Below, piece after piece: positions 12,381 through 13,379 of a DNA stretch of 64,000 nucleotides; the stretch's first letter is position 1; every line of letters starts with the position of its first letter. A model generated the notes under the pieces. It made no database searches. It saw only the letters and a program-made list of their open reading frames with translations, and was not told the DNA's origin. Position numbers and translations under genes: made by a program. Origin of the DNA: Escherichia phage EF1-1; the sequence record PQ571289; one strand, 5' to 3'.

Positions 12381-13379
12381 TCACCATTTAGTATGATTTG
12401 TTAAAAGTTGACGATGTTGAATCCAACCTTTGAAATTGCCAGACCAAAACTTACCATTACGATCTACATGGGTAATACCTGGTTCCCAAGAGTTAAAATC
12501 CCAAGGAGCATTGATAAACAAATCTTCAAAACAGTTCTCTCCATATTGTTCGCATGTTTCTTGCATTGGAGTGGCTTGATGTTCAAACGGAGAAGCATGA
12601 ACCTTGCGCCCAGTCAGCAAACGACCATAGATATCTAAAGCTTTATCTTTAGTTGCATTTAAACGACGATAGCTAACCTGTGCACAACACGAAGCTGAAA
12701 TAGCTTTGGCTTCTTCCAAAGTAAGCACGACAACTTCTCCAGATTCATCTTGAACGTAGTATCCACCAAAAACAAAATGATCGTCACCTTCTGTGCCAAT
12801 ATTATCATAGAAATGGTCTACATAAGGTGTGTGCCATTGCCCTGGTTTCAGCACTTCTGGTGTAGATTCTTCATACTCTTTGTGCATCTCTTTAGCCAAA
12901 GCTTCGATAGTAGGATCGGCTTCTTTGTCATCACGTAGCCACCAGAAATTTTCATATTCTGTTGCTGTCAGAACTGTTTTAATTCTTTGGAAAGGTTCCA
13001 GAAGACGGTTTGCAACTTGTTTGTGGTACCCTGCCAAAGAGAATTCTTCTGCGAAACGTGCTGCACTAAGCGCGGCAAGATTCCACCACTCTTGAGCAGT
13101 ATAACCTGCATCAATAAGAGCGTCATGATCAACACCTTTATCCTGCATACCAGGTTGGTTAGCCCCAAAACGATAAGGACGGGCAGGTTGATTTCGCACC
13201 ATTTCAATCAGTGTTTTAACAGGTATAGCACGGCTAGAAGCAGCATTACGACTGAACAGGCGGTGAGTCATCAATTCTGAATGAATAATACGTGGATATT
13301 CTAGTTCAAAAGTTACAATCTCTTTTCCGTCTTCAGTGATGGAATGCGCAATAATACTAGCCGAAATCTGTTTTGTCAT
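12381..13379 (-). CDS. ThyX-like flavin-dependent thymidylate synthase family protein (putative)
   Basis: THRLFSRNAASSR matches the ThyX RHR-x7-S signature except first R is T; 332 aa is longer than I recall for typical ThyX. Confidence 0.5.
   Translation of the reverse strand: MTKQISASIIAHSITEDGKEIVTFELEYPRIIHSELMTHRLFSRNAASSRAIPVKTLIEMVRNQPARPYRFGANQPGMQDKGVDHDALIDAGYTAQEWWNLAALSAARFAEEFSLAGYHKQVANRLLEPFQRIKTVLTATEYENFWWLRDDKEADPTIEALAKEMHKEYEESTPEVLKPGQWHTPYVDHFYDNIGTEGDDHFVFGGYYVQDESGEVVVLTLEEAKAISASCCAQVSYRRLNATKDKALDIYGRLLTGRKVHASPFEHQATPMQETCEQYGENCFEDLFINAPWDFNSWEPGITHVDRNGKFWSGNFKGWIQHRQLLTNHTKW

Follow-up and report, generated by a model that had tools for sequence, protein, structure and literature searches.

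A divergent ThyX-like gene of Escherichia phage EF1-1 points to a permuted phage subfamily of flavin-dependent thymidylate synthases

Phages usually encode one of two thymidylate synthases, ThyA or ThyX. ThyA, known in phage T4 as Td, converts deoxyuridine monophosphate (dUMP) to thymidine monophosphate (dTMP) with a fold and a chemistry unrelated to those of ThyX; it uses a Cys nucleophile and oxidises its folate to dihydrofolate, and therefore needs dihydrofolate reductase (DHFR). Canonical ThyX is a homotetramer whose active sites are built by three subunits. Canonical ThyX/Thy1 is exemplified by the enzymes of Thermotoga maritima (Tm; TM0449, PDB 1O26), Mycobacterium tuberculosis (2AF6) and PBCV-1 (4FZB). 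A further described relative is PolB of Streptomyces cacaoi (PDB 4P5A), the ThyX paralogue of polyoxin synthesis, which methylates uridine monophosphate (UMP) or dUMP at C5. Here we report on a ThyX-like gene in a window of 64,000 nucleotides (nt) of Escherichia phage EF1-1 (sequence record PQ571289). It probably encodes a flavin-dependent, ThyX-type thymidylate synthase of a permuted subfamily that supplies dTMP, the same metabolic role as that proposed for ThyA and Td.

In canonical ThyX the segments are collinear, whereas in the phage family the equivalent of Tm residues 10-59 is placed after the equivalent of Tm 62-208. The phage proteins also bear three inserts and measure about 280-340 amino acids (aa), against about 190-275 aa for canonical enzymes. 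They also differ from PolB, a 226-residue chain of ordinary ThyX length encoded in a secondary-metabolite cluster, whereas the phage protein is encoded among ribonucleotide reductase (RNR) and nucleotide-salvage genes of lytic phages.

A phage-borne ThyX-like family

The gene occupies positions 12381..13379 and encodes a divergent ThyX-like protein of 332 aa. The open reading frame (ORF) had been correctly located by the initial annotation, which left its strand unstated; it lies on the minus strand, from an ATG at 13379 to a stop codon at 12381-12383, and is the sole long ORF of an interval whose plus-strand translation contains many stops. A putative Shine-Dalgarno sequence, AAGGAG (13385-13390, minus), is read 5 nt upstream of the ATG and shares bases with the stop codon of the preceding nucleotidase gene. 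The window comes from a phAPEC8-like coliphage (genus Phapecoctavirus), whose ThyX-like protein shares 99.7% identity with its counterpart in phAPEC8_ev052, and several Phapecoctavirus genomes are about 97% identical over the 8 kb around the gene.

The protein exceeds the gathering threshold of the Pfam family PF02511 (Thy1) with 35.0 bits against 24.8, the match being limited to aa 22-175 and to profile positions 59-191 of 191; among the remoter members of the family, most have no precomputed Pfam match. PHROG 85, labelled 'thymidylate synthase', is matched end to end (E 8e-109). By tblastn, homologues were found in 1034 of the 50,697 phage records searched (about 2%), with at least 80% of the protein covered in 991 of the 1034. 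The carriers comprise rV5-like phages, ICP1, Pakpunavirus, N4-like phages (G7C-type and the roseophage 'N4 gp30-like'), phiCbK-like phages, Flavobacterium phages and relatives of phi92. An exhaustive profile search retrieved 5168 clusters (50% identity) at E <= 1e-10. The subfamily is large and almost exclusively phage-borne; canonical ThyX forms a separate and larger population in phages, with 2682 records. Genome papers name the gene thyX purely by homology (PMC2784036, PMC11934525, PMC12846349, PMC3556154), and neither a complementation test nor a mention of a segment rearrangement was found in the open-access PMC and bioRxiv literature. The architecture and the altered active site set out below appear to be undescribed.

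Segment order and architecture

The protein was initially noted to be longer than typical ThyX, and it does exceed the 209-275 aa of the nine canonical sequences compared. The surplus had been described as a Cys-rich C-terminal extension, a description that does not hold. There are just four Cys (C231, C232, C276 and C283); C232 is conserved in 122 of 139 diverse cluster representatives, on which all conservation figures rest unless stated otherwise, C231 is usually Arg, and C276 and C283 belong to a variable insert with many gaps. With four Cys and only C232 conserved, a metal-binding or Cys-rich C-terminal domain was ruled out. Moreover, the C-terminal half is not an appended extension, since the relocated N-terminal segment of the ThyX fold appears to lie within it.

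The core segment (aa 22-183; 12831..13316, minus), which holds R125, N144 and R149, is collinear with Tm 62-208 in the profile-profile comparison by hhalign (E 6e-6). Both the Pfam and the TIGRFAM alignments begin at model position 59-60, at residue 22 of the protein, so that the first 58 or so positions of the ThyX model have no N-terminal counterpart. Their probable equivalent follows the core. The segment at aa 216-267 (12579..12734, minus) corresponds to Tm 10-59, a strand and two helices (hhalign E 1.3e-4, score 29.3), and none of 200 column shuffles of its alignment reached this score (shuffles 11.6 +/- 2.4, maximum 20.6). It bears S236-Y237 in the place of Tm S30-F31 and, at aa 261-267 (nt 12579-12599), the motif HASPFEH in the place of Tm H53-H59; two predicted helices and A-x-x-S-Y precede the motif, as in the canonical '...AARVSF...HETPFEH'.

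Comparisons made with HMMER against PDB sequences gave the same order. Positions 137-179 of the family profile match native residues 155-197 of T. maritima ThyX (chain 167-209), and positions 215-270 match native residues 12-63 (chain 24-75), i.e., out of order. When two copies of the T. maritima sequence (identical to PDB 1KQ4 at 219 of 220 positions in these tests) were joined in an artificial tandem, the family profile aligned as one domain through the C-to-N junction with 20.8 bits, where the pieces taken singly reached 8.4 and 6.5; circular permutation of the T. maritima sequence raised its score from 17.2 to 22.3. In all 164 members in which both motifs were located, the Thr-His-Arg (THR) motif stands before HASPFEH, which here follows it by 220 residues; the collinear order, in which the HxSPFEH segment would precede the RHR helix, is absent. 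The alignment with characterised ThyX proteins that the initial annotation had proposed as a check is collinear over Tm 62-208 and out of order for Tm 10-59. Read together, these profile matches indicate a non-collinear family architecture, of order B-A instead of A-B. Such an order would be expected from a tandem duplication followed by trimming, and the segment with the strand, the two helices and HxSPFEH, which would supply flavin and folate contacts, would then follow the core.

Alternatively, a ThyX core that lost its N-terminus could have been fused to a C-terminal domain of unrelated origin, the likeness of HASPFEH and A-x-x-S-Y to ThyX being coincidental or convergent. This is an unlikely construction, although several results are in line with it. 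Pfam did not detect Thy1 in any of five fragments cut from the C-terminal part, even at E up to 10; the out-of-order HMMER pieces are each weak, with independent E-values around 10, and the hhalign probability of the relocated segment is only 54%. The blank Pfam scan suggests that the segment is invisible to sequence-to-profile methods, as it was found by profile-profile comparison. Against a fusion, five of the seven residues of HxSPFEH (H, P, F, E, H) are present, with the H, E and H of HASPFEH conserved at 99-100% and the P at about 90-95%, and the two helices and A-x-x-S-[YF] precede the motif at canonical spacing. The alignment score also stands about 7 standard deviations above the shuffle mean, and tandem T. 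maritima ThyX is aligned through its junction. A core deprived of the segment would, in addition, miss the flavin and folate contacts made by H53, T55 and E58. Structure prediction goes in the same direction: AlphaFold modelled the full-length monomer as a compact protein (predicted local distance difference test, pLDDT, 87.3; predicted template modelling score 0.87), whereas the model of the last 133 aa by themselves was of low confidence (pLDDT 55.8), which argues that they belong to the fold of the whole protein rather than to a domain added to it. With Foldseek, ThyX chains were matched over roughly 155 columns, the size of the collinear core, with a target-normalised template modelling score of about 0.5, in agreement with a ThyX fold.

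The remaining length of the permuted protein lies in three inserts and a C-terminal element. A family-specific insert (aa 65-94; 13098..13187, minus), modelled as a beta-hairpin, takes the place of the canonical loop after S-x-R-Y; its residues P68, G77 and M78 are conserved in at least 95% of the representatives, and N74 and Q79 are invariant in a narrower alignment of 100 sequences. A variable, beta-rich insert (aa 184-215; 12735..12830, minus) follows the invariant W182-H183-x-P185, and another variable insert (aa 268-310; 12450..12578, minus) holds the non-conserved C276 and C283; both are nearly absent in a roseophage homologue of 282 aa. The conserved C-terminal element FWSGNFKGWIQHRQL (aa 311-325; 12405..12449, minus), with near-invariant N315, Q321 and R323, weakly resembles Tm 159-173, the strand-helix with N163, R165 and N169, according to hhalign (E 1e-3; 0/200 shuffles). 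It might alter the subunit interfaces. A reading of 'GWIQHR' as a degenerate second RHR helix of a second ThyX repeat was rejected, hhalign giving no support (E 0.54). The changed segment order, the inserts and the C-terminal element together account for the extra length.

Active site and proposed function

The initial annotation had rightly read THRLFSRNAASSR (aa 38-50; 13230..13268, minus) in the place of RHR-x7-S, with Thr for the first Arg. It had missed the family-wide status of this change, the segment order and the inserts, and the loss of the residues equivalent to Tyr91 and Glu86. In the profile alignment, T38 corresponds to Tm R78, H39 to H79, R40 to R80, R44 to Y84, N45 to N85, A46 to E86, S48 to S88 and R50 to R90, and the next residue, A51, to Y91. 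The signature is thus T-H-R-x7-S, with H, R and S retained; the Thr recurs in 237 of 240 relatives at close and medium distance and in 135 of the 139 representatives, well above what chance would give. Where canonical proteins have S-x-R-Y, with Tyr in 9/9 sequences, the phage protein has S48-S49-R50-A51, and the Ala is present in 139/139 representatives. Compared with canonical ThyX, the family shows Glu for Q75 (E35) and Thr for both N163 (T138) and R165 (T140), besides Thr for R78 and Ala for E86 and Y91. Two new invariant residues, H183 and R323, have appeared, and N315 and Q321 are conserved at 97-99%.

Most of the other ligand residues are kept. In the core these are H39, R40, N45, S48, R50, R125 (Tm R147), N144 (N169) and R149 (R174), and in the relocated segment S236 (Tm S30), H261 (H53), S263 (T55), E266 (E58) and H267 (H59). 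H39, R50, R149, H261 and E266 are invariant, and S48 and N144 are conserved in at least 98%. The dUMP-activating and phosphate-binding arginines are accordingly present almost throughout (R149 and R50 in 139/139, R125 in 137/139), as are the ligands of HxSPFEH (H261 and E266 in 139/139, H267 in 137/139, and S263 in 135/139, otherwise Thr) and S236 (99-100%). Given that the fold, the Pfam match and most ligand residues are those of ThyX, while RHR-x7-S, the tyrosine of S-x-R-Y, collinearity and the score expected for the TIGR02170 model are lacking, we assign the family to the ThyX superfamily as a separate, permuted subfamily, and not to the orthodox ThyX proteins.

The substitutions at positions 38 and 44 appear to be coupled. 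Of 369 sequences with T38, 368 have R or K at position 44; of the four that have R or K instead of T38, three carry F or C at position 44, like the canonical aromatic residue. This suggests that the arginine was shifted by six residues along the same loop. R44, in the place of Tm Y84, may thus take over the role of R78 and compensate for its loss. H183 and R323 are candidates to stand in for Y91. We therefore propose that the active site was re-wired, not broken.

Departures from RHR also occur among phage ThyX of canonical architecture, with KYV in Riggi (Bacillus), KHQ in 2KOFFS (Shigella) and PSA11 (Pseudomonas) and KHK in SIO1 (Roseobacter). Such motifs indicate that 'RHR' is looser in phages than the textbook signature; the canonical phage proteins L008-L011 retained a basic first motif residue and the tyrosine of S-x-R-Y.

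The function is probably the ordinary one. The enzyme would convert dUMP, 5,10-methylene-tetrahydrofolate and reduced nicotinamide adenine dinucleotide phosphate (NADPH) to dTMP, tetrahydrofolate and NADP+, its bound flavin adenine dinucleotide relaying the methylene group and donating a hydride, and the dTMP, the likely product, would serve phage DNA replication. In vB_Ec-G1, a complete and near-identical genome of which 150 of 151.2 kb were checked, neither ThyA nor canonical ThyX was found, leaving the ThyX-like gene as the sole thymidylate synthase candidate.

Gene neighbourhoods in the family likewise point to dTMP supply. In 80 related IMG/VR loci, a homologue being counted within 10 kb of the family gene, NrdA was present in 28, the NT5C-like nucleotidase in 20 and rml genes in 5, and neither a second canonical ThyX nor DHFR was found in any (0/80 each). 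A dCMP (deoxycytidine monophosphate) deaminase was detected in 2/80, a count that is uninformative given the insensitivity of the single-sequence phmmer search. In roseophage DSS3phi2, a dCMP deaminase (two genes upstream) and a MazG-like protein come just before the family gene, and in Caulobacter phage Karma it is adjoined by a deoxynucleoside monophosphate kinase, RNR and dUTPase. A single locus of the 80 (L063, IMGVR_UViG_3300028615_000018) carries a ThyA-like ORF (+2|5216) within 10 kb; this ORF has the catalytic PPCH motif and RSCG where Escherichia coli ThyA has RSCD, and may encode another thymidylate synthase or else a hydroxymethylase.

Several observations weigh against a functional thymidylate synthase of ThyX type. 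R78, E86 and Y91 are replaced by T38, A46 (S or G in some members) and A51. In the Tm enzyme, the anion of the flavin hydroquinone is stabilised by R78 (PMC11940539), which also forms a hydrogen bond with dUMP (PMC3498832), and Y91 is the proposed general acid, the Y91A mutant losing more than 100-fold in rate (PMC8316439); E86 reportedly contacts the flavin through its main chain (PMC11940539). The covariation of positions 38 and 44 rests on four R/K38 sequences, perhaps mutually related. The spatial equivalence of R44 with R78, and the canonical three-dimensional place of the relocated segment, are both deduced from sequence. The TIGR02170 thyX equivalog model gave 31.8 bits, below its cut-off of 87.9, and is matched over positions 60-208 only (the roseophage homologue reached 21.6 bits). 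A single-sequence search of the PDB returned no relative, the E-values of the family profile against PDB ThyX were only about 0.01, and no assay or solved structure of the subfamily was found in the PDB, open-access PMC or bioRxiv.

The initial annotation had left open a conventional synthase or a pyrimidine-modifying variant, and the first is much better supported, by the residues, by the status of sole candidate and by neighbours involved in deoxynucleoside triphosphate supply. There is overall only a slight chance that the enzyme makes something other than dTMP. It seems quite unlikely, indeed, that a neofunctionalised ThyX-like enzyme modifies pyrimidines and makes no thymidylate, for example because water traps the exocyclic-methylene intermediate to give 5-hydroxymethyl-dUMP, or because the substrate is UMP or dCMP. 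The absence of Tyr91 and Arg78 and the Glu in the place of Gln75 leave a small chance for a flavin-dependent family modifying pyrimidines at C5, such as a dUMP hydroxymethylase or an enzyme with another nucleotide substrate, in which reductive methylation would not be completed. However, the uracil-activating R149 (Tm R174), the ligands of the dUMP phosphate and ribose (R40, S48, R50 and R125) and the folate-stacking H261 are all conserved, the dCMP deaminase of the roseophages makes dUMP, and the related complete genome has no other thymidylate synthase. The base-modification candidates annotated in that genome are limited to DNA methyltransferases and four glycosyltransferases, about 65 kb away, and rml genes accompany the family in just 5 of 80 loci. 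Moreover, many phages that carry a family member are treated as having ordinary DNA. The Vequintavirinae and relatives, which bear orthologues at about 53% identity and include rV5-type phages, are 'exceptionally susceptible' to restriction-modification systems (BASEL, PMC8594841); this sensitivity argues against bulk replacement of thymine, with the reserve, to be added to the points against dTMP synthesis, that the data cover relatives of EF1-1, i.e., other phages.

That the protein is a ThyX relic devoid of catalytic activity, retained as a nucleotide-binding regulator or scaffold after the loss of R78 and Y91, is highly improbable given about 35 positions conserved at 95% or more over roughly 5,000 clusters, mostly in known ThyX ligand-binding motifs, the location of inteins in active-site motifs, and purifying selection on the roseophage gene (dN/dS 0.18; PMC11934525). 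The inteins are found in members of 520-650 aa (P0241, P0267, P0383 and P0266) with HNH or LAGLIDADG-like inserts; they interrupt the THR...S.R motif, at three different insertion points, or HASPFEH exactly, as expected of active-site motifs.

Genomic context and significance

In EF1-1 the ThyX-like gene ends a run of minus-strand genes for a putative nucleotide kinase, an HNH endonuclease and an NT5C-like nucleotidase, with NrdA and NrdB downstream. A sigma-70-like promoter, TTGACA-17-TATACT (15426..15454, minus), recognised by its match to the consensus, is a candidate start of this transcription unit; a terminator-like hairpin lies just before it (15461-15479). The putative kinase is a 133-aa protein (14777..15178, minus) labelled 'nucleotide kinase' in a near-identical genome; its PHROG family carries no function and a homologue was found in 14 of the 80 related loci. 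The NT5C-type 5'(3')-deoxyribonucleotidase-like protein (202 aa; 13389..13997, minus; Pfam PF06941, 26.1 bits against 24.8) is encoded directly upstream, 9 nt from the start codon of the ThyX-like gene. An enzyme that removes phosphate from dUMP or dTMP is an unexpected neighbour for a maker of dTMP; it might deplete the pool, degrade host nucleotides or have a regulatory role.

The large subunit of class Ia RNR, NrdA (9358..11604, minus), is encoded two small genes downstream, followed by the small subunit NrdB (7584..8672, minus). About 17 nt past the ThyX-like stop, a near-consensus sigma-70 promoter (TTGACT-16 nt-TATAAT; 12337-12364, minus; 11/12 matches) faces a 147-aa ORF (11872-12315; PHROG 15711). 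HNH homing-endonuclease genes are present within the nucleotide-metabolism module at 8717-9370 and 14034-14609 (both minus). The former lies between nrdA and nrdB and is absent there in phAPEC8_ev052, which offsets the two genomes by about 650 bp.

The initial annotation had also stressed the proximity of the rml genes and of a nucleotidase. The location is accurate, the nucleotidase being the NT5C-type gene and rmlBACD lying about 5.6-9 kb away, but a functional tie to the rml genes is not borne out as a general feature, their presence being lineage-specific. They encode a complete dTDP-L-rhamnose (dTDP, deoxythymidine diphosphate) pathway at 3468-6746 on the minus strand (rmlB, 5754-6746; rmlA, about 4867-5745; rmlC, about 4304-4870; rmlD, 3468-4310), adjoined by a glutaredoxin or thioredoxin-like gene. 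Four consecutive glycosyltransferase genes are found beside the primase/helicase in the near-identical genome PQ433349.1 (87984-91128), and with the rml genes make up a putative glycosylation machinery. For phi92-like phages, the BASEL study (PMC8594841) describes comparable 'dTDP glycosylation machinery' that does not shield them from restriction. Elsewhere in the window, 11 tRNA genes are clustered at 28677-30586 (plus): Met, Arg-TCT, Ser-GCT, Tyr, Asn, Thr-TGT, Gly-TCC, Gln-TTG, Pro-TGG, Ile-GAT and a second Met.

The family is common and includes model and therapy-relevant phages, among them ICP1, the relatives of rV5 and phi92, Pakpunavirus, N4-like phages and phiCbK, and the label 'thymidylate synthase' was given everywhere by homology alone. 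Some caution in annotation is warranted, since the NCBIfam equivalog cut-off is not reached and many members escape Pfam. Should the protein not be a thymidylate synthase, the nucleotide metabolism or the DNA chemistry of many phages would need revision; if it were to modify pyrimidines at C5, rV5, ICP1, N4-like phages, phiCbK, Pakpunavirus and phAPEC8 would carry an unnoticed modification or a transient pool of modified nucleotides. If it is active as a thymidylate synthase, the family would represent a natural experiment on the mechanism of ThyX, in which neither Arg78 nor Tyr91 is indispensable and the fold tolerates an altered segment order. The architecture and the re-wired active site proposed here are thus of interest to ThyX enzymologists and, if activity is confirmed, would bear on current mechanistic models and on the design of ThyX inhibitors.
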